A stretch of 64,000 nt of DNA, taken from NCBI GenBank assembly GCA_026415435.1, contig JAOAHC010000045.1:99069-163068 (forward strand), given 5' to 3'. This document shows positions 6,641 to 55,093 of the stretch, piece after piece. A model generated the notes under the pieces. It did no database searches. It was not told where the DNA came from and saw nothing but the letters and a program-made list of their open reading frames with translations. Source of the DNA: Clostridia bacterium (GTDB lineage Bacteria > Bacillota > Clostridia > TANB77 > CAG-465). Both the position numbers and the translations under genes were made by a program. Every line of letters begins with the position of its first letter. Positions within the stretch are counted from its first letter, which is position 1.

Positions 6641-6688
6641 AGAGGCTAAAAGCCTCTAAATGGTCGGAGTGACGGAAACACTAAAAGT
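6641..6688. repeat. Candidate attL of element A: hairpin AGAGGCT-AAA-AGCCTCT followed by a degenerate copy (TGGTCGGAGTGAC) of the tRNA-Pro 3' end
   Basis: 13 nt identical to 55018-55030. The same hairpin-plus-core arrangement recurs at 42911-42961. Confidence 0.45.
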
Positions 6689-6730
6689 TAGAAGAACTGA
6701 TATCACTCCATTTGAGTATTCTAAAAAAAT

Positions 6731-6754
6731 ATTTTGGAACTCTGTTGGGACGCT
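6731..6754. repeat. Arm-type repeat CTGTTGGGACGCTGCAAAGTGAG, candidate integrase or Xis arm site of element A
   Basis: Closely similar sequence at 42802-42835 (TGGGACGCTGTAAGTGGG plus TGCTGTTGGGACGCC), just inside the other end of element A. Confidence 0.45.
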
Positions 6755-6901
6755 GCAAAGTGAGAAGTAGTAAATTATGATGAAGGACTATAAAGGTAAA
6801 TTTATAGAAAAAATTATTTTTAAATTTTAAAAATTAAATATAATAATTAAAGTATCTAAAAGTATAAAATTTAAAAAAAAAATACTTTTTTTAAATAACC
6901 C

Positions 6902-6931
6902 TTGACAATTGAGTAACAATTCAACTATAAT
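6902..6931 (+). promoter_or_regulatory. Sigma-A promoter of the cadC-cadA operon
   Basis: TTGACA at 6902-6907, an 18-nt spacer, then TATAAT at 6926-6931. Confidence 0.55.
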
Positions 6932-6937
6932 ATACAT

Positions 6938-6961
6938 ATAATTGAATATATGTTCAATTAT
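6938..6961. promoter_or_regulatory. Imperfect 12-12 palindrome ATAATTGAATAT|ATGTTCAATTAT, a candidate CadC/ArsR-family operator
   Basis: One mismatch between the half-sites. It sits between the -10 element and the cadC start. Confidence 0.45.
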
Positions 6962-6976
6962 AATGGAGGTAAATAT

Positions 6977-7336
6977 ATGGCAAAAAATGAATTTATATGT
7001 GATTGTAATGTGATACATCAAGAAATTGTTGATTTTGTATTAAATGATTTTCCGAATGGTGAGCAATTCAATAAAGTTGCAGATTTTTTTAAAATACTAG
7101 GAGATAGTACTCGTTCAAAAATAATATGGTCTTTATCAAAAAGTGAAATGTGTGTTTGTGATATTGCTAATGTTTTAGGAATGTCAAAATCTTCAATTTC
7201 ACACCAACTTGGTACATTAAGAAGATCAAATTTTGTTAAATGCAGAAAAGATGGAAAAACAGTATATTATTCTCTATCAGATGATCATGTTAAAAATTTA
7301 TTTAAATTAGGATTTGAACATATTAATCATAATTAA
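6977..7336 (+). CDS. cadC: ArsR/SmtB-family metal-sensing repressor, CadC-like
   Basis: N-terminal CDC metal site and a CVCD motif in the HTH region. It lies directly upstream of the P-type ATPase gene. A TGGAGGT RBS precedes ATG 6977; the ORF track starts upstream at 6950. Confidence 0.8.
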   Translation: MAKNEFICDCNVIHQEIVDFVLNDFPNGEQFNKVADFFKILGDSTRSKIIWSLSKSEMCVCDIANVLGMSKSSISHQLGTLRRSNFVKCRKDGKTVYYSLSDDHVKNLFKLGFEHINHN

Positions 7337-7359
7337 AAAGAGAAAGGAGGATAATATAT

Positions 7360-7578
7360 ATGAAGACAGTATATATTATTGAAGGTTTGGACTGTGCAAA
7401 CTGTGCATCAAAACTTGAGAGAGCAATACAAAAAATTGACGGAATAAAAAGTGCTACTATAAGTTTTTTTACTGGTAAACTTGTAGTAGAATATGAAGAA
7501 AATAGAGAAGAAATATTTGCTCAGATAGAAAAGACAATAAAAAAAGAAGAACCAGATGTTAAAGTAAGAAAAATTTAG
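7360..7578 (+). CDS. Heavy-metal-associated (HMA) domain metallochaperone
   Basis: GLDCANCASKLE (GxxCxxC) ferredoxin-like HMA fold, 72 aa, with a GGAGG RBS. Confidence 0.8.
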   Translation: MKTVYIIEGLDCANCASKLERAIQKIDGIKSATISFFTGKLVVEYEENREEIFAQIEKTIKKEEPDVKVRKI

Positions 7579-7589
7579 GAGGTTTTATT

Positions 7590-9434
7590 TTGAAAAAAGA
7601 AACAATACAAGTTATTTTAGGACTTGTAATATTCGCTATATCAATGATATTTAAATTTGATAATATATGGATTAATAATTTACTATATTTAGTAGCATAT
7701 GTCATAGTTGGTAGAGAAATAGTTTTTAAAGCTATAAGAAATATTTTTAGAGGAAAAGTTTTTGACGAAAATTTTTTAATGAGTATTGCTACGATAGGAG
7801 CTTTTTGCATAGGTGACTTTGCTGAAGCAGTTGCGGTAATGCTATTTTATCAAGTTGGTGAATTATTTCAAGATTATGCTGTTGATAAATCTAAGAAATC
7901 TATTACAAGTTTGATGGATATTAGACCTGACTATGCAAATGTAAAAAGGGAAAATGAAATTATAAAAGTTGATCCTTATGAAGTGAAAATTGGTGAAATT
8001 ATAATTGTAAAACCAGGTGAAAAAATACCACTGGATGGTAATGTAATAGAAGGGAATTCAATGGTTGATACTTCAGCACTTACAGGAGAATCTGTACCGC
8101 GTGAAGTAAATGTTGGAGTTGAAGTCTTAAGTGGTTGCATAAATATTAATGGACTTATAACTATAAAAGTCACTAAAGAGTTTGGTGAATCAACAGTAAG
8201 TAAGATACTAGATTTGGTTGAGAATGCAAGTAGCAAAAAATCAAATTCTGAAAACTTTATTACTAAGTTTGCAGCATATTATACTCCAATTGTTGTAATT
8301 TTAGCAATTTTTATAGCAATTGTTCCACCGTTATTTATACAAGATGCAACATTTAGTGATTGGATTTATAGAGCACTTGCTTTTTTAGTTGTTTCTTGTC
8401 CATGTGCATTAGTAATATCTATACCACTTGGATTCTTTGGAGGAATAGGTGGAGCGTCTAGAATAGGTGTACTTGTTAAAGGAAGTAACTATTTGGAAGC
8501 ATTAGCAGAAACAGAAATAGTAGTCTTTGATAAAACGGGTACTCTAACAAAGGGTGTGTTTGAGGTACAAGAAGTAAATGCTGTTGATGTTTCAAAAGAA
8601 GAACTTATACGATTAGCAGCACATGCTGAAAACAATTCTACACATCCTATATCGATATCATTGAAAAAAGCATATGGAGGTTATATAGATAATAATATAA
8701 TTTCTAATGTTGAAGAAATTTCCGGGCATGGAATAATCGCAAATGTTGAAGGTACACAAGTTATGGCTGGGAATAATAAACTTATGGAAAAAATGAACAT
8801 TAAATATCAATCATTTGATAAAATTGGTACAGTAGTCCACATAGCTTTGAATGGAAAATATGCAGGTAATATTTTAATTTCTGATAAAATTAAAGAAGAC
8901 TCAAAAATTGCAATAAAAAATTTAAAAGATAATAATATAAAGCAGACTGTGATGCTTACTGGCGATTCAAAACTTGTTGGAGAAAATGTTTCAAATGAAC
9001 TTGGTTTAGATAAAGTGTATACTGAATTACTTCCAACAGATAAGGTTGATAAAATTGAAGAATTATTTGAGACAAAATCAAAAAAAGGAAAACTTGCTTT
9101 TGTTGGAGATGGAATAAATGACGCTCCAGTTCTTGCACGTGCTGACATTGGCATAGCAATGGGTGGTTTAGGATCTGACGCAGCTATAGAGGCAGCAGAT
9201 ATTGTAATTATGACAGATGAACCATCAAAAATTGCAGGGGCAATGAAAATTTCTAAGAAAACGCTTAAAATTGTTAGACAAAACATAGGTATTGCGCTAG
9301 CAGTAAAAGGTGTTGTTCTTGTACTAAGTGCACTTGGTCTTTCAACAATGTGGGAAGCAGTATTTGCAGATGTTGGAGTTTCAATAATTGCAATACTTAA
9401 TGCACTAAGAGTTTTAAGAGTGAATAAAAAATAG
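7590..9434 (+). CDS. cadA: Cd2+/Zn2+-translocating P1B-type ATPase
   Basis: CPC motif (SCPCALV), DKTGTLT phosphorylation site, GDGINDAP hinge and 6-8 TM segments. It uses a TTG start after a GGAGG RBS. Confidence 0.9.
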   Translation: MKKETIQVILGLVIFAISMIFKFDNIWINNLLYLVAYVIVGREIVFKAIRNIFRGKVFDENFLMSIATIGAFCIGDFAEAVAVMLFYQVGELFQDYAVDKSKKSITSLMDIRPDYANVKRENEIIKVDPYEVKIGEIIIVKPGEKIPLDGNVIEGNSMVDTSALTGESVPREVNVGVEVLSGCININGLITIKVTKEFGESTVSKILDLVENASSKKSNSENFITKFAAYYTPIVVILAIFIAIVPPLFIQDATFSDWIYRALAFLVVSCPCALVISIPLGFFGGIGGASRIGVLVKGSNYLEALAETEIVVFDKTGTLTKGVFEVQEVNAVDVSKEELIRLAAHAENNSTHPISISLKKAYGGYIDNNIISNVEEISGHGIIANVEGTQVMAGNNKLMEKMNIKYQSFDKIGTVVHIALNGKYAGNILISDKIKEDSKIAIKNLKDNNIKQTVMLTGDSKLVGENVSNELGLDKVYTELLPTDKVDKIEELFETKSKKGKLAFVGDGINDAPVLARADIGIAMGGLGSDAAIEAADIVIMTDEPSKIAGAMKISKKTLKIVRQNIGIALAVKGVVLVLSALGLSTMWEAVFADVGVSIIAILNALRVLRVNKK

Positions 9435-9444
9435 GCGGTGTTTT

Positions 9445-9729
9445 ATGAAGTGTCCAATATGTAGAAATGTAGATTTAATAATGTCTGAAAGGCAAAATGT
9501 AGAGATAGATTATTGCCCTGAATGCAGAGGTATTTGGCTTGATAAGAGCGAATTAGATAAAATTATTGAAAGAAGTAATGGAGTATCTAATAATTATAAT
9601 GATGATATAAATAATTCAATTAAGTATAATATTAAAGAAAATAAACATGGAATGAAAAATAATAATAAAACTGGTAAGAAAAAGGAATCTTTTATATCTG
9701 AAATTTTTGAAATGTTTGGAGGAGACTAA
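9445..9729 (+). CDS. Zinc-ribbon protein (zf-TFIIB-type, CPxC...CPxC) with an Asn/Lys-rich tail
   Basis: MKCPICRNV...DYCPECRGIWLDKSELDKII. Confidence 0.6.
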   Translation: MKCPICRNVDLIMSERQNVEIDYCPECRGIWLDKSELDKIIERSNGVSNNYNDDINNSIKYNIKENKHGMKNNNKTGKKKESFISEIFEMFGGD

Positions 9730-9766
9730 TAGTAATTATATTATGAAAATTGTATAGGGGGTATAT

Positions 9767-10471
9767 ATGGATAAAATAATTGAATTATTTAATGTCACTA
9801 AGTTATATAACATAGGTGAAAAAGAATATAAAGCTTTAGATAATGTAAGTTTAGAGATAAATAAGGGAGATTTTGTTGTGATTCTTGGACCATCAGGTGC
9901 TGGGAAATCAACATTATTAAATTTAATAGGTGGAATGGATAGTGTTAGTGAAGGTACCATTTTTATAGACGGAACAAATATTACTAATTACAATGAAGAA
10001 GCTTTAACAAAATTTAGGGCTGAAAATATAGGATTTATATTTCAGTTCTATAATATATTTTCTAATTTGACTGTACTGGAAAATGTAGAATTAGTAAATG
10101 ATGTAGTTAGAAATCCTATTAACGCTAAAGAAGCAATAAAAAGTGTGGGATTAGAGAATCATATAAATAAATTTCCAACTCAGTTGTCTGGAGGTGAGCA
10201 ACAAAGAGTATCTATTGCAAGAGCGATTTCAAAGAATTCTAAAATACTTCTTTGCGATGAACCAACTGGTGCACTTGATTCAAAGACTGGTATTGAAATA
10301 TTAAAATTACTAAAATATCAATGTAGTAATGAGAATAATACTGTGATAATAGTAACTCATAACACTTTATATACAGATATTGCAGATAGTGTCATAAAGG
10401 TTAAAAATGGTAAGATAGAAAATATTATTAAAAATGACAAACCTAAAAATATTGATGAGGTGAATTGGTAA
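9767..10471 (+). CDS. ABC transporter ATP-binding protein (MacB/LolD-like)
   Basis: Walker A GPSGAGKST, signature LSGGEQQRV, Walker B ILLCDEPT. Confidence 0.9.
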   Translation: MDKIIELFNVTKLYNIGEKEYKALDNVSLEINKGDFVVILGPSGAGKSTLLNLIGGMDSVSEGTIFIDGTNITNYNEEALTKFRAENIGFIFQFYNIFSNLTVLENVELVNDVVRNPINAKEAIKSVGLENHINKFPTQLSGGEQQRVSIARAISKNSKILLCDEPTGALDSKTGIEILKLLKYQCSNENNTVIIVTHNTLYTDIADSVIKVKNGKIENIIKNDKPKNIDEVNW

Positions 10472-12759
10472 TGTTAAGAAGAAAATTCTTTCGTGATATT
10501 ATTAAAAATAAATCACAGTTTATAACAATATTTGCAATGGTATTTTTAGGTGTATTTATATATAGTGGAATTAATTCATATATGGCAGGTATGCAATATG
10601 TTGCAGATAGATATTATGATGAAAATAATTTTCAGGATATATGGATCATAGGGACAAATTTTACAAAAAATGATCTAAATAATATAAAAAACATTAATAA
10701 CGTAAGAGATGCAGAAAGAAAATTATCCGTAATTGGAAGCATAAATAATATTAAAGATTCTACTATACAGATAAATTTTATTGAGTCTAACAATATTTCA
10801 AAATTTTATGTAAAAAATGGAATTGGATTTAATAGAGATATTGATGGCGTTTGGATAGATAGTTATTTGGCTAATAATAATAATTTAAATGTTGGTGATG
10901 TTATAACAGTAAAATATGGCAATGAAACTTTTGATAAAAAAATAGTAGGTCTTATAATTGTACCTGATCATGTATATGATCCAAAATCTGAGGCTGAAAT
11001 TTTTCCTACACATACTGATTATGGATTTATATATTTATCTGACAAACAATTTCCTTATAAAGCAGAATATATGCAATATAATAGTGTAATGGTGGATGTG
11101 GAAAATATTTCAGCTACTGATGAGACTAAGGTTAATATAGAGAATAAAACAAGCAATTGGATAGCAGTTACTGATAGAGGTGATGATGTATCCAGTCAAA
11201 CCTATAAAGCAGAGATGGAAGAAGGAACTACATATGTAGTAGTTTTCTCGGGTATATTTTTATTTATTGCAATTCTATCAGTTATAACAACTATGAATAG
11301 ATTTGTGAAAAAACAAAGAACAGAGCTAGGTATACTAAAATCACTAGGATTTAAAAATAAAAAAATCATGAAGTTATATTTAAGTTATGGTTTTTGGATA
11401 TCATTATTTGCCAGCATATTAGGTTTGATTACAGGACCTATGGTAATAGGGAAAGTCTTTTCAAATATGGTAATAAAATATTTTGCTATACCTGAATTAT
11501 ATACTATTATTACAGCAGAAACATATTTTGTCAGTGGTATAGTTGTAGTAGTAATTGCTTTAGTTACTTATTTATCATGTAGAAAAGAACTTAAAGAGAA
11601 AGTAGTGGATGTTTTAAGAGAAAAATCACCAAAAGAAAATAAGTCGAACATAAATTTTAATAATAAAATATTTAAAAAAATTAAGTTTTCTACTAAATGG
11701 AATATAAGAGACGCTATAAGAGGTAAAGCAAGAATATTAATGGGAATAATAGGTACTACTGGGTGTTGTGCACTTATAATTTGTGCTTTCGGTATGCTAA
11801 ATACAATAAACGATTATGTAAATTGGCAATTTAATGAATTATATAACTTTAAATATAAAATGACATTGAATAGACAATATTCAGAAGATAATTATAACAA
11901 TATAGTTAGTAAATATGGTAACAATACATCTCAAACTTTAAATGTAGAAATAAAAAATTCTGAAAGTAAAGAAATAAATAATATTACAGTAGATAATTCA
12001 AATGGATTATTAAAATATACAAATATTAATAGAAAATACATAGAATTGAATGATGATGGAGTTTACATTACTAGTAAGTTAGCTGAAAGATTAAATTTAA
12101 ATGTTGGAGATAATATAAATTGGCACATTTTAGGAGATGAAACATGGTATAATAGTAAAATTATAGGAATCAATAGAAACCCTCAAAATCAAAATTTTTC
12201 TATGACAAAAAAATACTTGGAGAGTTTAGAAATAAATTATAGAGCAGATAGTATATATACAAACTATGATATGAGCAATATAAAAGAACTTGAAGGTGTA
12301 GATATAATACAAAATAAGGATTTTATAAAAAATGGCACAGAAAATATGATAAGTACAGTTAAAAGTATGATTATAATGATAATAGTTGCTGCAATAATAT
12401 TAGGTGCAGTAATTATATATAACTTAGGGATTTTATCTTTTACTGAAAAGTCATATCAATTTGCTACACTGAAAGTTCTAGGGTTTAGCACAAATAAAAT
12501 AAGAAGTATTTTTATAGAGCAAAATTTTTGGGTAACACTTATAGCTATAATTTTAGGTGGACCATTAGGGTATTATATTACATATGTTGTTTTTAAAATG
12601 GCACTTTCAGAGGATTACGACATGATAGCAAAGGTAGATAATATTTCATATTTATATGGAATATTAGGAACATTAATCGTTTCATATATAGTAAATAATA
12701 TTCTATCAAGGAAAATAAAAACTGTCAATATGGTTGAAAGTTTAAAGGCTAATGAATAA
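10470..12759 (+). CDS. ABC transporter permease, FtsX/MacB-like with a large extracytoplasmic domain
   Basis: 764 aa with two FtsX-like 4-TM modules. Its ATG overlaps the upstream stop (TAATG). The ORF track uses a TTG at 10465. Confidence 0.85.
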
Positions 12760-12788
12760 TAAAAAGTGTTATATAGTAAATATTTTAA

Positions 12789-12834
12789 TAAAAGTTATAC
12801 TTGAATTGCTATAATTCAAAGTATAACTTTTTTG
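12789..12834 (+). terminator. Strong rho-independent terminator after the ABC operon
   Basis: A 17-18 bp stem AAAGTTATACTTGAATT / AATTCAAAGTATAACTTT with loop GCTAT, followed by TTTTTT. Confidence 0.75.
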
Positions 12835-12844
12835 AGGTGATGAA

Positions 12845-13708
12845 TTGAAAGAAAATAAGAAATTTTACTGGTTAAAATTAAAAGATGATTTTTTTAATAC
12901 TACTGAAATAAAAATAATGAAAGGGTTACCTAATGGGAAAGATTATATAATCTTGTTACTACAACTTAGATTACTTAGCATAAATCATGATGGATTGTTG
13001 CAATATAATGAATATATACCATATGATATAAATACACTCGCTAGTTTAACTGATACTAATATAGATATAGTTAGAACTGGTATAAAACTATTTGAAGAAA
13101 TGAAGCTGTTATCAATACTTGATAATGGCACTTTTTTTATGCAAAAAGTAAATGAATTAGTAGGTAGTGAAACAAAATGGGCTGAGTATAAAAGGGAAAA
13201 AAGAAAATTAGAAAATGAAGGACAATTGTCTTTAAAAAGTCCCAAAAATAACTTGGAAAATGTCCAAGAAAAGTCCACTCAAAATATTGGACAATGTCCT
13301 ACAAGAGATAAGAGTATAGAGAATAAGATAATAGATTTTAATAATAGTTATAGTAATAACAGAAAAGAAGATGAAAAATTGCTACAAATAAAAAATATAT
13401 TTTTAAAATATTTAAAATATACTACTGCTACTATAATAACTGAATGTTATAAAGAATTTAGTACCATGGATATTACAGTTATTGAAAGTGCCTTTATAAA
13501 AAGTGCTGAAAAAGATGGTAGTTGGCTATATGCTAAAACAATACTTAAATCTTGGAAGATTAAAAACATATTAACTGTTGAAGATGTGGAAAACGAGAGG
13601 CAAGAATTTGAAAAAAGTAAGAATAAAATTACTTCAAATCATGGAAATAAATTTTATAGTAATGCTTTTGATAATATAGATTTAGAAAAGTTTTATGATA
13701 ATTTATAA
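12845..13708 (+). CDS. Phage-type replisome organizer / DnaD-domain replication initiation protein
   Basis: The N-terminus MKENKKFYWLKLKDDFFNTTEIKIM...DYIILLLQL matches the phage_rep_org_N pattern. The C-terminal region looks DnaD-like. TTG start with a GAGGTGA RBS. Confidence 0.65.
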   Translation: MKENKKFYWLKLKDDFFNTTEIKIMKGLPNGKDYIILLLQLRLLSINHDGLLQYNEYIPYDINTLASLTDTNIDIVRTGIKLFEEMKLLSILDNGTFFMQKVNELVGSETKWAEYKREKRKLENEGQLSLKSPKNNLENVQEKSTQNIGQCPTRDKSIENKIIDFNNSYSNNRKEDEKLLQIKNIFLKYLKYTTATIITECYKEFSTMDITVIESAFIKSAEKDGSWLYAKTILKSWKIKNILTVEDVENERQEFEKSKNKITSNHGNKFYSNAFDNIDLEKFYDNL

Positions 13709-13718
13709 GGAGGGGAAG

Positions 13719-14087
13719 ATGAAAGAATTAAAAAAAGAAGATATAACAGTTGTTGGTATAGTTGTATGCTGGAGTGAAAATTCAGAAATAAATAAATTAA
13801 AGCATAAACAATCATTTACTGCAACAGAATTTGAAGAAATATGTAAAAAGCAAGATGAAATATTTAATAATCAAGAAGAGAGACTTGGCTATGATAAGAC
13901 AAAGTATCAAGTCGTATACTTTGTAAATTCAGAAAAAGATCTAATTGCAAAATCGTATACTAATAGAGTTGATATAGGCGATGGTGAAAAACATATGCCA
14001 ACTGAAGATAGTATAAAAAATACTATAATAAATATAGAACAAAGAGAAAATAGATCTAAATATAAATCTAGAGAAGTTGAGATGTAA
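13719..14087 (+). CDS. Hypothetical protein
   Basis: AAGGAGGGG RBS before ATG 13719. The ORF track starts at 13695. Confidence 0.5.
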   Translation: MKELKKEDITVVGIVVCWSENSEINKLKHKQSFTATEFEEICKKQDEIFNNQEERLGYDKTKYQVVYFVNSEKDLIAKSYTNRVDIGDGEKHMPTEDSIKNTIINIEQRENRSKYKSREVEM

Positions 14088-14092
14088 TAAAT

Positions 14093-14698
14093 ATGAGTGT
14101 GTTATTTGAAATACAAAAAATACAAAGATTAGAAAATGCTGAAAAAATTAAAATAGCAACTCCGAAAGATATATACAATATACCACAGATTCAAGAAATA
14201 AAAGACGCTACTCAAGAGCATTTAATTGTTATAACATTGAATACAAAAAATATAATTACATCTATTGAACTTATTGGAGTTGGTAGGATTGATAGTATAA
14301 ATATTGATGCAAAAGATGTAATTAGACCAGCACTTATTCAGGCATCTAGTGGTATTATCATAGTTCATAATCATCCATCAGGAGACACGACACCAAGTAA
14401 ACAAGATATTGGTTTTACTGCAAGAATAGAAGATATGGCTAGATTGTTTAATATTTCATTATTAGATCATATAGTTGTTGGTGATGGATACCTTAGTATG
14501 AAAGAAATGGGGAGTTTGGAATACAAAGGATCTTTTGAAAAAGAAAAATTTAATAATGAAACTATAGATGAATTAAAAAAGCTAAATTCAAGTTTAGTTA
14601 GTGAAATAGAAAGTAAAGATAAAAAAATATCTATGTTGGAAAAACAGATTAATAAATATAAGAAACAAATAAGTAAAGATGAAGAATTAGAAATATAG
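14093..14698 (+). CDS. RadC-like JAB/MPN domain protein with a C-terminal coiled coil
   Basis: JAMM motif HNHPSGDTTPSKQD. Confidence 0.8.
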   Translation: MSVLFEIQKIQRLENAEKIKIATPKDIYNIPQIQEIKDATQEHLIVITLNTKNIITSIELIGVGRIDSINIDAKDVIRPALIQASSGIIIVHNHPSGDTTPSKQDIGFTARIEDMARLFNISLLDHIVVGDGYLSMKEMGSLEYKGSFEKEKFNNETIDELKKLNSSLVSEIESKDKKISMLEKQINKYKKQISKDEELEI

Positions 14699-14709
14699 AA
14701 GGAGGTATA

Positions 14710-15477
14710 ATGCTAAAGATAAATGAAATATATAATATGGATTGCTTAAAGGGTATGAAACTAATAGATAATAAATCAATAGATATGATACTATGTGATT
14801 TACCTTATGGTACCACACATTGTAGTTGGGATATAATAATACCATTTGATAAATTATGGAAAGAATATGAAAGAATAATAAAAGATAATGGAGCAATTGT
14901 TTTAACTGCTAGTCAAAGTTTTACTACTAAGTTAATAATGAGTAATTTTAAATTATTTAGATATGAGTGGATATGGAAGAAAAATACTTGTACAGGTTTT
15001 CAAAATGCAAAGAAGATGCCACTTAAAGCACATGAAAATATATGTGTGTTCTATAAAAAGTTACCAACATATAATCCACAGAGAATAGTAAGGATTGATA
15101 AGAAAATAAAGCCTAGAGCTACAAAAGGAGGTAGAATTTTACTAGGTGATGATTATTCTTTGGTACAAGCATTAAATAAGGAATATGTTCAAGAATATAA
15201 AAATTATCCTAAAAGTATATTAGAGATAAATAAAGAGTTTAAGAATATACACCCTACTCAAAAGCCAGTAGAACTATTTGAATATTTAATTAGAACATAT
15301 ACAAATGAAAATGATATTGTACTAGATAATTGTATGGGAAGTGGAACAACAGCTATTGCTTGCATAAATTCAAATAGGAAATATATAGGATTTGAAAAAG
15401 ATGATAGATATTATAAATCTGCAAAAGAAAGAATTGAAGTACATATAAAACAAAAGGAGTTGAAAAAAGATGAGTGA
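14710..15477 (+). CDS. Orphan DNA methyltransferase (N6-adenine/N4-cytosine, beta class), a likely anti-restriction function
   Basis: DPPY-like motif LCDLPYG precedes the SAM motif DNCMGSGTTAIAC. No restriction endonuclease partner is present. GGAGGT RBS. Confidence 0.8.
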   Translation: MLKINEIYNMDCLKGMKLIDNKSIDMILCDLPYGTTHCSWDIIIPFDKLWKEYERIIKDNGAIVLTASQSFTTKLIMSNFKLFRYEWIWKKNTCTGFQNAKKMPLKAHENICVFYKKLPTYNPQRIVRIDKKIKPRATKGGRILLGDDYSLVQALNKEYVQEYKNYPKSILEINKEFKNIHPTQKPVELFEYLIRTYTNENDIVLDNCMGSGTTAIACINSNRKYIGFEKDDRYYKSAKERIEVHIKQKELKKDE

Positions 15478-16354: not shown

Positions 16355-16430
16355 AGTGAAAAATGCTTTTAATTGAATAATTATAATAAATAATATATAA
16401 TTATTTTAGTTACTAATGGAGGTACTAAAC

Positions 16431-17255: not shown

Positions 17256-17442
17256 AAATATTGTTATACCTATATGGGAGTGTACAAATTTGCCTGGGAG
17301 TATATGTTAGTGGCTTTGCCACTAAGCTGTTGTACGATGTGTACTACATCTATTCCTGCTCTACGAGGTTTTATATAATGTTGTATTTACAAAAATACAA
17401 CATTATAGTATAATTGAACTAGTAAAGGGTAGGTATGTAGTT

Positions 17443-18018: not shown

Positions 18019-18073
18019 AGTATATTAAAAAATAAAATTTATATAAGAATATAATAATTTTATGGAGGTGAAA

Positions 18074-19577: not shown

Positions 19578-19648
19578 TCTTAAATCATCAAAAATATTTC
19601 TTTTAAACTTATTTAATATATGATATAATTAAATAAATTGGTGATTAT

Positions 19649-47136: not shown

Positions 47137-47150
47137 TATTATATAACTAC

Positions 47151-47183
47151 AAAATCGCTGTATAACTACACAGCGATTTTTAT
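47151..47183. terminator. Terminator shared by the KAP gene and the convergent small gene
   Basis: Stem AAAATCGCTG / CAGCGATTTT with a 10-nt loop. Confidence 0.6.
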
Positions 47184-47202
47184 ATGTTTATAAAAAAATC
47201 AA

Positions 47203-47364
47203 TTATTCTCTATTTGAAATGGCGAATTTTATCATTTCAATAACAACTTTATTAAATGATATTTTCTCTTTTTTTGCTATTTCTTCTATTATTTTTACAT
47301 CCGTTTCAGGGATTCTCAATGTTTTACTTATTTGAGTTACCTCTTTAGGTATCTTAAACTTCAT
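47203..47364 (-). CDS. Small ribbon-helix-helix (CopG/Arc-like) DNA-binding protein, 53 aa
   Basis: GGAGGA RBS. KTLRIPETDVKIIEEIAKKEKISFNKVVIEMIKF fits a beta-strand plus two helices. Not in the ORF track. Confidence 0.4.
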   Translation of the reverse strand: MKFKIPKEVTQISKTLRIPETDVKIIEEIAKKEKISFNKVVIEMIKFAISNRE

Positions 47365-47523
47365 ATAAATCCTCCAATCTATATTACATTTATAATATAG
47401 TTATATTTTATACTGAAAACAGCATATAAATCAGCACCTATAAATACAATTACAAAACAATTGCAAATATGGTTGCAAAAATACAAAATAAATGGTATAA
47501 TAATGCAAAAAGGAGATGTATTT

Positions 47524-48591
47524 ATGAATAAGATAAAAGAATTAATAAAAAAATATAAGATTTTATGCATTGTAATTACAATAGTGATAGTTTTAGTTAT
47601 ATCTACAATACTAGTGTTATATTTCAAGAATCCTAAAAATAGCTTTATATATAATCTAAACAATAATAACTTTACTAAGGCAAATGAAATATATGAAAAA
47701 AGTATTAAGTACGACAAGAAAGTACAAGTAGAAACTGAAATTGAAGTTGAAAAGATTATTGCTAGTATAACTGAAAACTTTAATAATGCTAAAAAAGGAT
47801 ATAATGAATCTATTGAATTACTTAATAGTGTTGAAAAAACTGGAATGCTAAAAGATAAGGTAATAGAAGCAAAAAAAATAGTTGAGGATTTAAATAAATC
47901 TAAAACGGCATATTTGAAAGCTATTGAATATAGTAAATCTGGAGATTATTATAATACTTTAGTTGAGTTTAATTCAGTAATTGAGAAAGATATAAATTAT
48001 AATATTGCTAAAGAGAAAAGTAGTGAAATTTTGAGCAAATATAGGGAAGAATTATTTAAAACAGTTGATGAAAATGTTGCAAAAGGAGATTATGATAAAT
48101 CAATAGAATTATTAACCCAATTAAGTAAGATTAGTCCAGAAGATAAAGAGATACAAACAAAAATTGAAGTATATAAAGATAAGAAAATTGTTAGTCTAAA
48201 AGATAAACAAGAAGTAAATGTAGTATCTGCAGATTTTCATACTCAATGGTATTCTGATACTGTTTCTGGGATAAAAGTTATAATAAAAAATAACACTAAT
48301 AAAGTAATAAAAAACTACACACTTGGAATATTAGCATATGATAAGGATAATTATCCTTTACAAATATCATATAGTAATACTCTTTTTAGGGGTAAAGGAG
48401 AATCAGTAAATATACAACCAGGACAGACTGGAGGAGAGGATACATATTTTGATATATACTATAACGAAGAAAAGATGAAGACTGCTATTGCATGTGTTGA
48501 AAGTGTTGAATACTATGACGGAACAGAATGGACTAATCCATATTATCAACTATGGTTAGAAAAATATAATGATAAGAGATACTCTAATTAA
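47524..48591 (+). CDS. Membrane-anchored extracytoplasmic protein of unknown function
   Basis: AAAGGAG RBS. N-terminal TM helix followed by a ~320-aa domain. Confidence 0.55.
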   Translation: MNKIKELIKKYKILCIVITIVIVLVISTILVLYFKNPKNSFIYNLNNNNFTKANEIYEKSIKYDKKVQVETEIEVEKIIASITENFNNAKKGYNESIELLNSVEKTGMLKDKVIEAKKIVEDLNKSKTAYLKAIEYSKSGDYYNTLVEFNSVIEKDINYNIAKEKSSEILSKYREELFKTVDENVAKGDYDKSIELLTQLSKISPEDKEIQTKIEVYKDKKIVSLKDKQEVNVVSADFHTQWYSDTVSGIKVIIKNNTNKVIKNYTLGILAYDKDNYPLQISYSNTLFRGKGESVNIQPGQTGGEDTYFDIYYNEEKMKTAIACVESVEYYDGTEWTNPYYQLWLEKYNDKRYSN

Positions 48592-49169
48592 GCTAAATTA
48601 AGGCACCTATGAAGCCCATATGAGCTTTTTAAATATATAATTGATAAATAATGCTTATAAAAATCAAATCAATTAAAACTTGTTATATTGAAGATAAATA
48701 AAAACATAGAAAAAACAGGAAAATTATATTAAAAATATATTTATTAATAAGTTTAATAATAGAGTTAGTAAGTTAAAAAAATATAAATATCTAATTAAAT
48801 ATACTTGTATAGAAAAAACAGTGTTATAAAAGAAAAATTTAACTATTAAAATTTAAGTAAATATTTTATATATAAAAAATTAATAAATTATGCTAAAAAT
48901 AATATTAACATATAAGTATTTATTTGCCTAATTTAATGTGTTTTGAGGAATATTATATTAAAATAATCAAAATTTCTTACAGGTAAATTAACCCTATGTT
49001 AGTCTAGAAAAATATGACAAGAAAAAGTATATAAATATTATTAAAAGGAACTGTAAATGGCTAGATATTAACATTTATTCTACTTTCAACAAATATGTTT
49101 CTACTAAAATAAAAATAAAGAGGTAAAACCTCCTTAAAGAAATGAACATTACTTAGTTTTATATGTATG

Positions 49170-49230
49170 ATATTTACCGTATTACTGTGTTTACCGATAC
49201 TAATCTACTTAGTATCGGTAAAACACTAGA
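49170..49230. repeat. Long imperfect palindrome (GTGTTTACCGATACTA...TAGTATCGGTAAAACAC), a candidate replication origin of element B
   Basis: A 16-bp stem with outer TACCGT/ACGGTA extension. It lies 25 bp downstream of the AAA_25 gene and borders a ~600-bp AT-rich noncoding stretch. Confidence 0.4.
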
Positions 49231-49253
49231 AACGGTATATTTTTATATAGAGA

Positions 49254-50339
49254 TTACTCTATAGGTCTAAATGTGTGGTCTCTACGACCATTTTTTCCGT
49301 TTTCAGGTGGTGGAGTATATTCTATGTCATCTTGATTTTTTAGTAATTCTTTTATATTCCTTAGATGCTTAGATAACGTAACGGGAGTATAAGAGAGATT
49401 ATTGTTATTATGTCTTTGGCAAACATCTAATAATTGCTGAGCACTACCAAACCACGCATATTCTGATTCTACTAGATGTTTTATTACTTTTACAACAGGG
49501 TCTTTTAGATAGTCTATTACTTTTTGCTGTTCTTGAAGTTCTTCTTTGTTTCCTATAAGTTCCCACTTACAAGTAGTATTATTAAATGAAATTATATAAT
49601 CATTTTCTACAATATCTCTACCAGTTATTGACCATTTTGTTTCTATATCCTCTCTTTTATTTTTCGTAAATACATATGCTGTATCAACCGCACCAAGTAT
49701 AGCAGTGGAACCAGAAATCATATTGAAAGAATCGCTATCATCCTTTGATTTCCTTAGATGGTGTATTAATAATATACATATATTATATTTATCAGCTAAA
49801 TTCTTTATTGCACTCATATCCCTATAGTCTCCAGCATACACATTTTGACTACCATATGCATTTTCTCTTACTTTTTGAAGAGTGTCTATAACTATTAGTT
49901 TTGTGTCTGGATGTTCTATAATATATAAATCTAAATAATCAATTAGCCCACTAGATAATCCAGGTATTTCTGTAGTAAAATTGAAATTACTTGGTGCTGT
50001 ATCATTGTTTAGTAGTTTTTCTACACGCTCTTTCAATCTTTTTTCACCATCCTCTAATGCTAAGTACAAGCATCCTGATTTTCTTGTTTCAAAACCAAGA
50101 AAGGGTAATCCTTTACTAACACTTAAGCATAAATCAAGAGCAAACCAACTCTTTTTTGATTTGGGTGGAGCAGCAAGTATTGATAAGCCTTGAGGTAGTA
50201 CCTTATCAACAATATATGTTGTAGGGTCAAATTCTTTGTTTTGCAGTTCTTGTGCAGATATTGTTCTTATTTTTTTCTTTTTTTTACTGTCTTCTTCTAA
50301 ATTGATAACAGTAGTTTCTTTTAAAATGTCTTTATCCAT
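49254..50339 (-). CDS. RecA-fold AAA_25 NTPase (RepA / primase-associated, replication-initiator-like)
   Basis: Walker A AAPPKSKKS and Walker B LIVIDTL. Strong AGGAGGAA RBS. Confidence 0.65.
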   Translation of the reverse strand: MDKDILKETTVINLEEDSKKKKKIRTISAQELQNKEFDPTTYIVDKVLPQGLSILAAPPKSKKSWFALDLCLSVSKGLPFLGFETRKSGCLYLALEDGEKRLKERVEKLLNNDTAPSNFNFTTEIPGLSSGLIDYLDLYIIEHPDTKLIVIDTLQKVRENAYGSQNVYAGDYRDMSAIKNLADKYNICILLIHHLRKSKDDSDSFNMISGSTAILGAVDTAYVFTKNKREDIETKWSITGRDIVENDYIISFNNTTCKWELIGNKEELQEQQKVIDYLKDPVVKVIKHLVESEYAWFGSAQQLLDVCQRHNNNNLSYTPVTLSKHLRNIKELLKNQDDIEYTPPPENGKNGRRDHTFRPIE

Positions 50340-50449
50340 TTTAGTTCCTCCTAATATAATTATCTTATCTTATCAATGTTAATTTAGGTTAACATTTGAT
50401 ATATCTAGAAATAAATTCTAGACCATTTAATACCAATTAAATTTAATAT

Positions 50450-50629
50450 TTATTCATTGTTTTGAGCAATATTTTTTTGTTCTAATATATACTCATTTAC
50501 ATCATCAATATTAAAAGTAATTTTTGAGCCAATTCTAAAGAATTTTATTTTCTTTTCTCTCACTAATTTCCTTATAGCAGATTCTGAACACCCTAAATAT
50601 TCAGCTAATTTTTTGACATTAAAAAACAT
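50450..50629 (-). CDS. Excisionase/AlpA-family HTH protein
   Basis: MFFNVKKLAEYLGCSESAIRKLVREKKIKFFRIGSKITF. AAGGAGG RBS. The ORF track starts at 50647. Confidence 0.65.
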   Translation of the reverse strand: MFFNVKKLAEYLGCSESAIRKLVREKKIKFFRIGSKITFNIDDVNEYILEQKNIAQNNE

Positions 50630-50861
50630 AAGTGAACCTCCTTTCATATAAAATTTGTAAATAAACGTTTATCTTACACTATTTATTATAACATTAGAAA
50701 TACTCAAAAATCAATACGATTTTACACGTTCGCATTGTTGAACATTTAGTAAATAAAAAGGAAATAGTGTCTTGTTTTTAATCATTATTAAATATGTGTA
50801 AAATAATATTGACAACAAACCTTTGGTATGCTATAATAATATATATTAGGGGGAGAACTTT

Positions 50862-51767
50862 ATGAAGAAATATATATTTCCAACTGAGGTTACGGGCTCA
50901 GAAAAAAAACAACAAAGTTATTTTACTAAAACGTTAAGAGAGACCAGAGAAAAGAGGGCTAGTGAATATAAAGATTCTAAATATAATCCTTACTCACAAA
51001 AAAGCATTGCTGAGAAAATAGGAGTTTCAAGAACAACTTATAGTAACTATGAAACAGGAGACAAATTACCTAAAATAGAGACATTTTATAAATTATGTGA
51101 AGTATTAGGTGTATCTTGCGATTATCTTTTAGGATACTCAAAAAGTCCAATAAGAGAAAATAGAGATGTAGCCAACTCTACAGGATTAAGTGATGAAAAT
51201 ATTGAAAAATTTAAGACTTATAAAGATAAAAAAATAACTTTATTTTTAATTAATAACATTCTTAATAATAGTAAGCTTATTAATCTTTTAAGAGAATATT
51301 TAGTTGAAAAACCTATGAAAGATATATTTAATGAAAATGAAGAACTAAATATATTCTTAAATAATTATAATTCTAACTTTGATAGTCATCCTATAAAAAC
51401 ATATATGGAAGAAAATAAGTATGAATATTATAAATTGATTGAGTATATGCCATTATTACAAGAAGAGTTTAAAAATAAACTTATTGATATTACAAATAAA
51501 AAAGATTATAGTCTATTCTTTGAGTTCTTTAGTTATTATGAGAAAATAAAAAATAGAGATAATGAGATTTATAATAAACTAGAAGATAATGAAATCAAAG
51601 TACATTCTGAGGAAGAAATAAAAGAAATGAATGAAAAGATGGATAAAATGGTAAGAGAGCATGAAGCTATTGAATTAGAAAAATATCTTGAAACTGATGA
51701 ATATAACATGTTTAAAAAAATCAATGAAAGTTATCAGGAATATTTAAAATCTAATTCAAAAGAATAA
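50862..51767 (+). CDS. XRE-family HTH regulator with a C-terminal extension (element repressor candidate)
   Basis: HTH QKSIAEKIGVSRTTYSNYETG. Confidence 0.75.
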   Translation: MKKYIFPTEVTGSEKKQQSYFTKTLRETREKRASEYKDSKYNPYSQKSIAEKIGVSRTTYSNYETGDKLPKIETFYKLCEVLGVSCDYLLGYSKSPIRENRDVANSTGLSDENIEKFKTYKDKKITLFLINNILNNSKLINLLREYLVEKPMKDIFNENEELNIFLNNYNSNFDSHPIKTYMEENKYEYYKLIEYMPLLQEEFKNKLIDITNKKDYSLFFEFFSYYEKIKNRDNEIYNKLEDNEIKVHSEEEIKEMNEKMDKMVREHEAIELEKYLETDEYNMFKKINESYQEYLKSNSKE

Positions 51768-51850
51768 TAATATTTTAGTTGTGGAGGTGATGTTAATGTG
51801 ATTATTTAAGTAAAAATAGATTGGAACTAGAAAAAAAGGAGGAATTTGAA

Positions 51851-52984
51851 TTGTCAGTTAGAGAAATAGCAAAAAATAAGTATAGAATAGAAATACCAAT
51901 AGCATATATAGGTTCGAAAAGAAAAAGGCATGTTGAGACACTTGATAATACAACATTAAAGCAAGCAAAGCTTAGAGAAGCTGAGATAAAATTAGAATTA
52001 ACTAATAACAATTATATAAAGAAGATTAATATTACTTTTGAACAACTATTAGATGAATGGCTTAAAATGCAAGAAAGTAAACTTGCAATAAAAACATATA
52101 AGAACTATGTTAATTATTCTAAAAGAATTAAAGATAGTATAGGATATGTTAAATTAAAAGATATAAACCCTAGAATATTAGAAGGTTTTTATAATGATTT
52201 AAGAACAAATACGACTTATGCTGATAAGACAATAAAACATTACTATACATTAATTAATACAGTATTAAGTACAGCAGTTAAATGGGATTATATAAAAACT
52301 AATCCAAATACTAAAGTAGATAAAATTATTGTAAAAAAGAAGCAAGGAAGATTTTATACACCTGAACAAGTAGCTAAATTAGTAAATGCTCTAGAAAGTG
52401 AAAGCTTAAAGTATAAAGTATTAATTATACTAGCAATAGATACAGGATGTAGAAGAGGAGAACTTACAGGATTAGAATGGAATGATATAGACTTTGAAAA
52501 AGGGATTATATATATAAATAAAACTACTCAATATGTAGCAGGAATAGGAACCTTTGAAAAGGGAACAAAAGGAAATAGAGGATACACTAGTGATAGAAAA
52601 ATTCATATATCTAAAACAACTAAAGAATTATTATTAGAATTTAAGGAAGAACAAAGCAAACTTAAAGATAAACTAGGAGAATTGTGGCAAGGTAGCAAAA
52701 GAATCTTTACAACTGATTGGGGAGCAGATATGCATCCTAATACACCATCGGCTATACTTACTAAAATACTAGAGAGAAATAAACTAGATTATATAAATTT
52801 TCATGGATTAAGACATACTAGTATTTCATTACAAATTGAGTTAGGGATACAACCACAGGTTATATCTAAGAGAGCAGGACATAGCAATTTAAATACAACT
52901 CATAGTATATACTCTCATTTCTTTGAAAGCAGTTTTGAAGAAGTACCAGAAAAGATAGATGCTTTTTTACATGCATCAACATAA
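51851..52984 (+). CDS. int: Tyrosine integrase (phage/island type)
   Basis: HGLRHTSISL...AGHSNLNTTHSIYSH catalytic residues. AGGAGG RBS 8 nt before TTG 51851. The ORF track starts at 51821. Confidence 0.85.
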   Translation: MSVREIAKNKYRIEIPIAYIGSKRKRHVETLDNTTLKQAKLREAEIKLELTNNNYIKKINITFEQLLDEWLKMQESKLAIKTYKNYVNYSKRIKDSIGYVKLKDINPRILEGFYNDLRTNTTYADKTIKHYYTLINTVLSTAVKWDYIKTNPNTKVDKIIVKKKQGRFYTPEQVAKLVNALESESLKYKVLIILAIDTGCRRGELTGLEWNDIDFEKGIIYINKTTQYVAGIGTFEKGTKGNRGYTSDRKIHISKTTKELLLEFKEEQSKLKDKLGELWQGSKRIFTTDWGADMHPNTPSAILTKILERNKLDYINFHGLRHTSISLQIELGIQPQVISKRAGHSNLNTTHSIYSHFFESSFEEVPEKIDAFLHAST

Positions 52985-53027
52985 AAGAATAAGGAAAGAT
53001 AGAATAGCACTCTATCTTTCTATTTTT
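52957..53027. repeat. 3' end of int plus its terminator hairpin (AAAGATAGA...TCTATCTTT); copy 1 of a duplicated segment
   Basis: Duplicated at 54829-54900 as two blocks of 25 nt and 19 nt. Confidence 0.6.
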
Positions 53028-53138
53028 ATATTACGTATAATTGTAATTAATAAAAAAATATGATATATTTTTATATAAAAAGATAGTGTATAAAAAATAT
53101 CGTAAATTATTGATTTTCTAAGATTAGGAGGAATAATA

Positions 53139-53912
53139 ATGAAACAACCATATTTAGTATTAATTGAAAGTGAAGAAGTTAAAAGGAATAAAACTAAATT
53201 AAATATACCAGGAATTTATAATTTTTTGCCACATGTATATGATGCATTAATGAAATTACCTTTTTATTGCGGAAAATTAGCTGAAGATGATGATATTAAT
53301 ATGATAAAAATCCAGGACGTATTTCAGTTTTATATATATGACTTTCCATTCAAAATTAGAAATATATATTCATTAATGGAAATAGGAAGTTATGCAGATG
53401 CTGTTATTTTATACCGCTCACTAATTGAAAGTTTTATTTTTTATAAGTACTATATTTTAAGGAAAGATGGTCATGGATTAAGCAAATATATTCTAAGGGA
53501 ATCTAAAAAAACTTTAAAAGATATTTTTGAATGTGTTATCCCAGGCTATTATAATGATATATATAGTGAACTGTGTAAATTTACACATGGAAATCCATTA
53601 ATACAAGCTATATTTAGGGGTAACGTATCAAAAGATAAACCTTTAAAGTCAAATATTAATAATATTAATATTGATTGGTTTTCATACATTCATAATCAAT
53701 TAATTCCTTTAATTATTGGAGTAACTGAAATGTATAAAATTGTATTTCCTAATAATATTATAAAAAACGATGAAATATTAATTAAAGATTTAGAGTATGT
53801 TTATAAGTTTATTAATGATGATATAGATTATAGAAAAGAATTTTTTATAACCCAGTTGCCGATGATAAATTATTATAATAAAATAATTAGAATGAACTTA
53901 GATACAAATTAA
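53139..53912 (+). CDS. Hypothetical protein (257 aa)
   Basis: AGGAGG RBS. Confidence 0.55.
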   Translation: MKQPYLVLIESEEVKRNKTKLNIPGIYNFLPHVYDALMKLPFYCGKLAEDDDINMIKIQDVFQFYIYDFPFKIRNIYSLMEIGSYADAVILYRSLIESFIFYKYYILRKDGHGLSKYILRESKKTLKDIFECVIPGYYNDIYSELCKFTHGNPLIQAIFRGNVSKDKPLKSNINNINIDWFSYIHNQLIPLIIGVTEMYKIVFPNNIIKNDEILIKDLEYVYKFINDDIDYRKEFFITQLPMINYYNKIIRMNLDTN

Positions 53913-53989
53913 TATTAATAAAATACATAAACTTTAGAACTATTGTTCTTTTGGATTTTACATGTTATAATACTAAAAGGGGGTATAAT

Positions 53990-54739
53990 ATGGAACAGAA
54001 AGAATTATATAAAATAGTCAGTAAATATTTTTCTAATGAAATTAATTATATGAATGTATATGGGGATATAAAACAAGAAGAAATTGTTAAAATGTTTAAA
54101 TCACTATATTCTTATGAAAGACCTGATTTCTTTTCTATATATGATAATAAATTAATAGGAATAGAACATTTTGAATTTGATAGTTATAAGAAAAATACTA
54201 AAGGTAGTGATTATAGAAAAAAAGAAGCATTAATAAATAAAGAAGTAGATAAAGCTAATAAACAATTAAAAGTTAATAATGATATGATTATGCTACACAA
54301 TGAAATAGTTAATACTTCATCAGCTGAAAGTTATATTAATAATTTATATACTGTATTTAACAGTCACTATGAAAAAATAGCTGAGTATGAAAATAATTTT
54401 AAAACAGATGTTAATTTTAAAAATATGGAAATAGAAATTTGGTTTTTTATTGAAGATGTAACTCCTTTAGGAAATTTCTATATTAATGATAATGATAAAA
54501 TTTGTTTTTTTGATATTATTCATATTAAACAATTTATAGAATTATTAGCTAAATCTCCAAATGTTAAAGGTATAATAGGTACAAGTTTTAATGGGAAGGA
54601 AGATAAAATTAGCATTATAAAAAATAATAGTGAAACATTAAAAGTGTTAAAGTCAGAATGTGTTGACATTGAAACAAAAAAATTGCAGGCTTTTAATCCA
54701 CAATTATTAGATTATACACTAATTATACCTAAAAAATAA
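53990..54739 (+). CDS. Hypothetical protein (249 aa)
   Basis: AAGGGGG RBS before ATG 53990. Confidence 0.5.
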   Translation: MEQKELYKIVSKYFSNEINYMNVYGDIKQEEIVKMFKSLYSYERPDFFSIYDNKLIGIEHFEFDSYKKNTKGSDYRKKEALINKEVDKANKQLKVNNDMIMLHNEIVNTSSAESYINNLYTVFNSHYEKIAEYENNFKTDVNFKNMEIEIWFFIEDVTPLGNFYINDNDKICFFDIIHIKQFIELLAKSPNVKGIIGTSFNGKEDKISIIKNNSETLKVLKSECVDIETKKLQAFNPQLLDYTLIIPKK

Positions 54740-54828
54740 TAGTACGCATTATATGCAATTTGGTTTTTTTAAAATTACAAATGACCATTAGAGTATAAAT
54801 TGATATGTGAAAATATAAATAAGCAAAA

Positions 54829-54900
54829 AAAAGATGCACTTTTACATGCATCAACATAAAAGAATATTTATTTAAAAAAGAAGAATAGCACTCTATCTTT
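54829..54900. repeat. Remnant of an integrase 3' end (codons DALLHAST-stop) plus a terminator-like sequence; copy 2
   Basis: 54842-54866 is identical to 52967-52991, and 54882-54900 is identical to 53001-53019. Confidence 0.6.
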
Positions 54901-54929
54901 TCTAAAACATAATTAGATAAAATAAAAGT

Positions 54930-54950
54930 CCGACACTTTTTGGACACTTT
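54930..54950. repeat. Arm-type repeat CCGACACTTTTTGGACACTTT of element B (right end)
   Basis: Matches 43078-43098. Confidence 0.55.
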
Positions 54951-55017
54951 TTATAGTATTAACAAAATACATAAACTGTATAACCATTGATATGACTGAC
55001 TTTTAAACTATATAAGA

Positions 55018-55093
55018 TGGTCGGAGTGACAGGACTTGAACCTGCAACCCCATGGTCCCAAACCACGTGCGCTACCAATTGCGCTACACCCCG
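55018..55093 (-). tRNA. tRNA-Pro (anticodon UGG) with encoded CCA
   Basis: The reverse complement folds as a cloverleaf, CGGGGTG...TTTGGGA...GGTTCAAGTCCTGTCACTCCGACCA, very similar to Bacillus tRNA-Pro. Confidence 0.9.

Follow-up and report, generated by a model that had tools for sequence, protein, structure and literature searches.

Probable accretion of unrelated tyrosine-integrase elements at the 3' end of a tRNA-Pro(TGG) gene in an uncultured Clostridia bacterium

The DNA analyzed in this work is a stretch of 64,000 nucleotides (hereinafter the window) from contig JAOAHC010000045.1 of an uncultured Clostridia bacterium (assembly GCA_026415435.1, positions 99,069 to 163,068). According to ARAGORN, the only tRNA gene of the window is an intact tRNA-Pro(TGG) on the minus strand. 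We suggest, with a probability that we would place at about 0.87, that several unrelated elements encoding tyrosine integrases have used the 3' end of this gene to attach and are now arranged head to tail. Read on the plus strand, the array consists of the remnant arm of an element that we call C (6477-6660), an integrative and conjugative element (ICE), A (6674..42937), an integrative island, element B (42962..55017), and finally the intact tRNA gene (55018-55093, minus strand). Both A and B possess a tyrosine recombinase, repeats of the tRNA 3' end, the tRNA at one border, and arm repeats that are specific to each element. In addition, the traits of a tandem accretion can be recognized in a chimeric internal attachment (att) site, in two distinct integrases sharing 26% identity (the catalytic residues being kept in both), and in the remnant arm of C.

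The tRNA-Pro gene was retrieved both by ARAGORN and by Rfam (65 bits), the latter revealing no other RNA family in the window, and a promoter-like site for it lies at 55138-55110. On the plus strand its 3' end reads TGGTCGGAGTGACAGGACTTGAAC, and this 24-mer is found exactly both at 55018-55041, that is, in the last 24 nt of the gene (core copy 3), and at 42938-42961 (core copy 2, plus strand), as stated in a preliminary description of this DNA. The same description reported a degenerate 13-nt copy at 6661-6673; a copy is indeed there (core copy 1, plus strand), but it is not degenerate, since TGGTCGGAGTGAC, representing the first 13 nt of the 24-mer, is present without any mismatch and the divergence begins only beyond it. 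A search for the 13-mer allowing up to two mismatches disclosed no further credible copy in the window (expected number, 0.09). In terms of tRNA structure, the T-stem contributes its last 2 nt to the 13-nt core, which continues through the acceptor 3' strand to ACCA, and the 24-nt core reaches the T-loop. Core copy 1 represents the left junction of A, and core copy 2 is a chimeric internal att site, being at the same time the right junction of A and the left junction of B, with the right arm of A on one side and the left arm of B on the other.

Each of the two elements exhibits its own short motif close to its ends. That of A is GGGACGC, which occurs three times in the window (6747, 42804 and 42828), always on the plus strand and always at the ends of A; the expected number is 0.07, and none of 100 shuffled sequences reached three copies. 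Longer words are also common to both ends, i.e., CTGTTGGGACGC (6742/42823) and TGGGACGCTG (6746/42803). The putative left-arm site, CTGTTGGGACGCTG (6742..6755, plus strand), is placed 86 nt after the start of the core, and the two putative right-arm sites, TGGGACGCTG ... CTGTTGGGACGC (42803..42834, plus strand), are placed 134 and 110 nt before it.

The comparison with A-like elements, whose integrases, as far as the closest relatives of that of A are concerned, all come from metagenomic contigs, revealed that this arrangement is maintained. The right-arm block GTGGGACGC..GTGGGTGC.GTTGGGACGC is conserved in two loci, L081 and L082. In L082 (integrase 79% identical), the integrase gene is followed by two copies of GGGACGC and then by an intact tRNA-Pro(TGG), in a chromosomal neighborhood unrelated to that of the window; an A-like element thus stands there alone. 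In L081/L085 (integrase 97% identical), the arm block, the hairpin and the core of A are all kept and no tRNA follows directly. On the same contig (GCA_023410645.1), the A-like ICE is followed by a 10-kb element (L085, 4141-14181) encoding Fic, a regulator, a replisome organizer, a Mob_Pre relaxase and an integrase 56% identical to that of A, whose cargo is SLATT-SMODS-AGS_C, resembling CBASS (cyclic-oligonucleotide-based antiphage signaling systems). Beyond it, another core copy is found, together with a third element embedding three open reading frames (ORFs) for D12-class methyltransferases and an HNH protein, so that at least three elements are in tandem, each with its own short repeats. 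The left end of a further A-like ICE (L087) was reached by a search with the replisome-organizer protein of A, which did not reach the contigs of L081 and L082; here the core is followed, 86 nt after its start as in the window, by TTGGAACTC.GTTGGGACGC, and this left junction retains 23 nt of the tRNA versus the 13 nt of the window.

Besides these sites, the 11-mer AAACACTAAAA is present at 6676-6686 (2 nt to the right of the left core) and at 42891-42901 (37 nt to the left of the middle core), and in a circular form of A the pair would form a direct repeat on either side of the hairpin and the core. L081 and L082 have a similar word, GAAACACTTAAAAAC, in their right arms. The 11-mer may be one more site at which a protein binds, or may be due to chance.

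As for element B, the word GACACTTT occurs five times in the window, at 43063 (minus strand), 43080, 43091, 54932 and 54943, all copies lying within about 150 nt of the junctions of B; 1.5 copies are expected, and three of 100 shuffled sequences reached five, none of which would cluster in this way. The putative left-arm sites (43063..43098, plus strand) are AAAGTGTCG, in inverted orientation, CCGACACTTTTT and CGACACTTT, and a B-like locus, L083, has kept them at its left end. The two putative right-arm sites (54929..54952, plus strand) are TCCGACACTTTTT and GGACACTTTTT, which precede the core by 86 and 75 nt, the 13-mer TCCGACACTTTTT being common to 43077 and 54929. In L083, whose integrase is 81% identical to that of B, the right arm shares 93% identity with that of B, its two sites being identical to those of B, and the GACACTTT pair precedes the core, as in the window, by 86 and 75 nt; the left-arm pair and the regulator of B are also kept. 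The cargo is wholly different, with large NTPases (AAA_14, 1243 aa; AAA_13, 721 aa) flanking the integration module, which suggests the swapping of cargo on a conserved chassis. A more distant B-like element (L088/L089, integrase 60% identical) adjoins an intact tRNA-Pro, followed by AcpS-MetRS-signal peptidase-HolB-PSP1 as in the window, and in L088 the paired repeat has diverged to CGTCACCTTT, present twice in the same position as in B; hence, the repeats co-vary with the integrase. On the whole, the idea put forward previously, that each element carries arm-type motifs of its own just inside both ends, is corroborated for A, with GGGACGC confined to its ends and the spacing kept in relatives, and for B, with GACACTTT clustered at its junctions and an identical spacing in L083; concerning the possibility that such motifs are common, within the 64-kb window they are confined to the element ends.

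If A and B entered at the tRNA gene, then the sequence on their left should be found elsewhere joined directly to a tRNA-Pro. A query made up of 11 nt of the left flank and 18 nt of the tRNA, i.e., the predicted empty junction, was scanned against metagenomes and gave one match, L084. In this locus, the sequence corresponding to positions 6477-6676 of the window aligns at 90% identity and continues directly as an intact tRNA-Pro, behind which AcpS and MetRS are found, so that the segment 6674-55017 (A plus B) is an insertion relative to the L084 arrangement. Since AcpS and MetRS share about 74-77% nucleotide identity with those of the window (about 74% for the MetRS gene), the L084 host is a related species rather than the same one. 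The check for an empty site in related genomes, which had been proposed together with the idea of two insertions, was therefore successful at this level. Genome contigs scanned with MetRS yielded only relatives with at most 58% identity, none of them having a tRNA-Pro nearby.

The L084 locus also sheds light on what lies to the left of A. It harbors a 2.5-kb island (824-3463) with 38-nt tRNA-Pro repeats at its borders (the tRNA fragment being at 824-861), which contains two ORFs, one with a RES domain, no integrase, and ACAGTTAC twice at both ends. The right end of this island (3203-3404) is 90% identical over 203 nt to the segment 6477..6660 (plus strand) of the window, where ACAGTTAC-type repeats at 6489, 6500, 6521 and 6542 form a cluster spanning 6489-6549 and are followed by a terminator-like hairpin. 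As the repeat cluster is the same, the left flank, including its hairpin, can be regarded as the arm that an older element, C, had on the side of the tRNA, and the sequence left of 6661 is most simply explained, judging from these repeats, as the stub of a third, decayed element. In positions 1-6476 of the window, no further core copy, repeat cluster or integrase was found, and the other end of C is either outside the window or lost. The view that the left flank represents pristine chromosome was rejected, given the C-type arm repeats. Similarly, the gene to the left of 6661 (5120-6418) was considered as an integrase and discarded, its product being a DAO-family FAD-dependent oxidoreductase. 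Farther to the left, at 2365-3429, three short ORFs with HTH_28, HTH_21 and rve_2/rve_3 pieces look like a broken IS3-family transposase.

Hairpins with an AGAGG stem had been described before the left and the middle core copies. Both are real, at 6641-6657 (-9.8 kcal/mol) and at 42913-42933 (-12.4 kcal/mol); the third core copy (55018) does not have an adjacent one, the nearest terminator-like site on the minus strand being at 54833-54852. Both hairpins are called as terminator-like on the minus strand, that is, on the strand of the tRNA, starting 3-4 nt past the CCA end and showing a T-run after the stem. They are predicted rho-independent terminators for the tRNA copies, and their interpretation as recombination signals was rejected on the basis of this strand and position. 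The second hairpin is carried by ICE A and conserved in L081, and it would terminate the tRNA reconstituted by A upon integration. The hairpin at the displaced tRNA fragment of L084 is about 93% similar to that of ICE A (over 55 nt, core included), suggesting that a terminator accompanies the copy of the tRNA end in the elements inserted here.

The tyrosine integrases of the two elements are IntA (38526..39701, plus strand; PF00589) and IntB (51821..52984, plus strand; PF00589, PF14659 and PF13102). In IntA, the catalytic residues R214, H322, R325, H348 and Y358 are invariant across 28 homologues, IntB being alignable to it through the same motifs, and the AlphaFold model of IntA (mean predicted local distance difference test, pLDDT, 80.7) finds its best matches in the Protein Data Bank (PDB) with the Tn1549 integrase and the full-length lambda integrase; the PDB matches of IntB are the lambda and Tn1549 integrases as well. 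The N-terminus of the IntA model contains three strands (11-14, 19-28 and 34-41) and a helix (44-62), with pLDDT of about 80-87, and this beta3-alpha unit precedes the core-binding and catalytic domains, in the region matching amino acids 82-397 of the Tn1549 integrase. By analogy, the modeled architecture would be that expected of an integrase able to bind arm-type sites as well. Upstream of IntA, an 81-aa ORF (38281..38526, plus strand), whose stop overlaps the start of the integrase gene, is conserved in position (81 aa in L081 and 84 aa in L082); this position makes it a candidate recombination directionality factor of A.

On the basis of the lambda/Tn916/Tn1549 paradigm, the following scenario can be depicted. 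Each element would carry an attP stretch identical to the tRNA 3' end. Its integrase would bind its own arm repeats, GGGACGC in the case of A and CGACACTTT in the case of B, via the N-terminal domain, and the shared core with the catalytic domains. Strand exchange would then take place within the tRNA-identical stretch, in the first 13 nt for A and in the 24 nt for B, thereby inserting the element and rebuilding the tRNA with DNA of the element; the identity segments are 13 nt long for A (in this copy), 24 nt for B and 38 nt for the C type. The tRNA would remain functional because the incoming element re-supplies its 3' end (and, in the case of A, the terminator too), and the displaced tRNA end would be left at the far junction. 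Each newcomer could use either the rebuilt tRNA or the displaced copy, so that the array would grow, with chimeric internal att sites lying between neighboring elements. Provided that the intact tRNA is where new elements enter, C is probably the oldest element, and either order of arrival of A and B would give the same sequence, so that this order cannot be deduced. Both A and B may still be able to excise.

Element A, with its 36.3 kb (the core-to-core unit being 36,277 bp), encodes, according to Pfam, NCBIfam and PADLOC scans, what is expected of a conjugative element. Its left end carries cargo genes for a CadC/ArsR regulator (6950-7336), a P-type ATPase (7590-9434) and an ABC/FtsX exporter (9767-12759), followed by a replication and maintenance region with a replisome organizer (12845-13708), RadC, a DNA methylase and ParB. 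The transfer region comprises a MobP3/MobL relaxase (18441-19577; 163 bits versus a cut-off of 150), a VirD4-type coupling protein (T4SS-DNA_transf, 20982-22844), a pilin-like protein (22859-23182), TrbL (TrbL_4, 23194-24054), VirB4 (VirB4/TraG P-loop, 26477-28306) and an M23 peptidase/hydrolase (28310-28996). Surface proteins of the SpaA/thioester adhesin type (33268-35974) and a sigma factor (37083-37487) precede the integration module. Relaxase, coupling protein, VirB4, mating-pore components and integration module are all present, and A has, by its predicted gene content, what defines an ICE. Between the integrase gene and the right end of the element, a slot (39824..42710, plus strand) contains ArsR, ArsR, ArsD and ArsA; no arsenite pump (ArsB/Acr3) or ArsC was seen near these genes. 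In L081 the slot is occupied by a ResIII helicase and in L082 it is empty, and this difference in content makes it look like an insertion point for cargo. We consider A a putative self-transmissible conjugative element with Cd/Zn-type and As-type resistance cargo. Within its transfer region there is also a gene for a ThsB-like TIR protein of the Thoeris type (29116-29535; PADLOC E-value 2e-11); the next four ORFs have no family match, and no ThsA partner was recognized near it.

Element B is much shorter, 12.1 kb (12,080 bp). From left to right it encodes a KAP-family NTPase of 1271 aa (43321-47136), a TPR-DUF5780 protein (47461-48591), an AAA_25 helicase/primase-like protein (49254-50339, minus strand), an HTH_17 excisionase-like protein of 65 aa (50450-50647, minus strand), a Cro/CI-type regulator (50862-51767), IntB, a DUF5677 protein (53139-53912) and a protein with no assigned function (53951-54739). 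The gene for the KAP NTPase lies in the stretch of the window with the lowest G+C content (18-21%); its product shows a weak, N-terminal similarity to PifA/QatA and a long C-terminal part for which no family was matched. The approximately 660 bp between the DUF5780 and the helicase-like genes (48592-49253) contain no ORF of at least 35 aa and nothing recognized by Rfam; an origin of replication, an RNA or a pseudogene might be located there. No relaxase family was found in the ORFs of B with Pfam, NCBIfam and PHROGs, which is why we do not assign it to the IMEs (elements that are integrative and mobilizable); no phage structural genes were recognized among these ORFs either. Viral contigs (IMG/VR) scanned with IntA and IntB gave no close relative, and hence neither A nor B looks like a catalogued virus. 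From its predicted genes, we class B as an integrative island that carries defense-like cargo and encodes a replication-helicase-like protein.

On the other side of the array, the neighborhood to the right of the tRNA-Pro gene of the window consists of AcpS-MetRS-signal peptidase-HolB-PSP1. Farther to the right, two adjacent minus-strand ORFs (60249-60848, 199 aa, and 61010-61558, 182 aa) appear by eye to be paralogues, having in common the C-terminal motifs HLWVISRD / YLWIFSTD and DLSITI / DLSITL.

Concerning the interpretation of the array, the attL/attR-type organization attributed to the two elements in the preliminary description is supported by the intact integrase, the tRNA repeats and the private arm motifs that each of them owns. 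Of the two successive integrations at the same attB also proposed there, the insertion at this site holds, and the succession is not told apart from the arrival of a pre-formed composite. Indeed, A and B might have been joined by accretion in an earlier host, excised at the outermost att sites, moved by the conjugation machinery of A and integrated once. A mobilization in cis by the neighboring ICE is plausible for an element such as B, which has no recognized relaxase, the transfer of composites made up of an ICE and a cis-mobilizable element (CIME) has been seen experimentally (PMC5704250), and an array is again present at this site in L081/L085. However, A-like and B-like elements occur apart or with other partners (A-like, L082 alone and L081 with a different neighbor; B-like, L083 and L088 next to the tRNA), no other contig with the same A plus B pair was seen, and a recombination between the outermost sites needs one integrase acting on a chimeric pair of arms; we therefore regard this scenario as quite improbable. 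The mere coincidence of short or low-complexity repeats in ordinary chromosomal segments is hardly conceivable. In a genome with about 25% G+C, short AT-rich matches are frequent, and many words of 8-11 nt are in fact shared, but the words found only at the junctions, namely the 24-mer, the 13-mer and GGGACGC, are rich in G+C, motifs and spacings recur in independent metagenomes, and integrases and a conjugation module are present.

It is also unlikely, although somewhat less so than a single arrival as a composite, that one or both segments are fixed islands no longer able to move, the repeats being fossils in a static array. The 13-nt length of the left core of A, the decay of elements at this site witnessed by the neighboring arm of C, and the fragments of an IS3 transposase in the flank would fit this idea. 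On the contrary, neither integrase ORF is truncated and the catalytic residues of both are intact, all arm repeats are preserved at both ends, no obvious pseudogenes are present in the conjugation module of A, and a recent activity of both families is indicated by L083 and L081, in which near-identical att arms are associated with different cargo. We thus favor the accretion of unrelated elements at the tRNA-Pro 3' end, and some data weigh against it. The left core of the window is short, 13 nt, and no strictly empty site of the same species was found, the tRNA of L084 carrying a small island of its own. No family match was obtained, in Pfam or in the other scans, for the 81-aa ORF viewed as a candidate excisionase gene of A, and Pfam recognized no arm-binding domain in the N-terminus of IntA or IntB. 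Lastly, the source is a metagenome-assembled genome, and the assembly across the 24-nt repeats is assumed to be correct; repeats as short as 24 nt are not usually a source of mis-joins.

Among Firmicutes, ICEs, IMEs and decayed CIMEs that have accreted in tandem at tRNA 3' ends are described in streptococci and others (PMC5704250). In the tRNA-Lys composite of Streptococcus agalactiae, the order is attL, decayed ICE, chimeric attI, IME, attR and tRNA, with integrases less than 30% identical and differing att sites, and the ICESt1/ICESt3-CIME arrays of S. thermophilus represent a further example (PMC5704250). The array described here resembles the streptococcal ones in that one tRNA 3' end is common to several elements, the internal att is chimeric, the integrases are less than 30% identical and have different arms, and a decayed older element lies at the distal end. 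It differs from them in the target, tRNA-Pro(TGG), in the host, an uncultured Clostridia known from a metagenome-assembled genome, in the ICE, which looks intact, and in its neighbor, which has no recognizable relaxase. The integrases are similar to those of lambda, Tn916 and Tn1549 (PDB 1Z1B; 6EMZ/6EN0) in the R-H-R-H-Y residues, in the core-binding and catalytic fold, in the extra N-terminal domain made up of a beta-sheet plus a helix (as modeled for IntA), and in the association with short repeats in both arms, away from the crossover, whereas the sequence identity is only 15-22%. In addition, Tn916 and Tn1549 have a low site specificity, whereas A and B show the specificity for a tRNA that is also typical of many phage and ICE integrases.

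As to the two elements themselves, the gene content and order of A are those of Firmicute ICEs (MobP3/MobL, VirD4-like, VirB4, TrbL/VirB6-like, cell-wall hydrolase and LPXTG/SpaA adhesins). B is reminiscent of phage-inducible chromosomal islands (PICIs) and of small int-repressor-xis-primase islands in its divergent regulator/int and xis-like/helicase-like modules, in its size of 12 kb and in the variable defense-like cargo on both sides. Unlike PICIs, no packaging, capsid-remodeling/interference or terminase-small-subunit genes were recognized in B, nor was a close match found among viral contigs. A and B are previously undescribed elements, the former a metal-resistance ICE and the latter a defense-cargo island.

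It is tempting to speculate on whether the array might also work as a functional composite, in which B is carried in cis by A excising via the outermost att sites, or else hijacks the relaxosome of A. In this lineage the tRNA-Pro 3' end would be common to at least four to five integrase families, each having an orthogonal arm code (GGGACGC, CGACACTTT, ACAGTTAC, ATGCAAT-like and TACTGCAA-like) but the same 13-nt crossover segment, and this might represent a modular "docking rail" on which members are swapped block by block. We consider this possibility tentative and, on balance, doubtful.

Since tandem accretion at tRNA genes is already well documented, the present findings do not change any concept. 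The att cores and the probable arm-type sites have been delimited for both elements, a result that can help annotation and the cataloguing of ICEs and IMEs and that provides apparently orthogonal integrases targeting tRNA-Pro. Within the probability given above for the origin of the array, tRNA-Pro(TGG) emerges as a recurrent hotspot for multiple elements in this uncultured, low-G+C Clostridia lineage.

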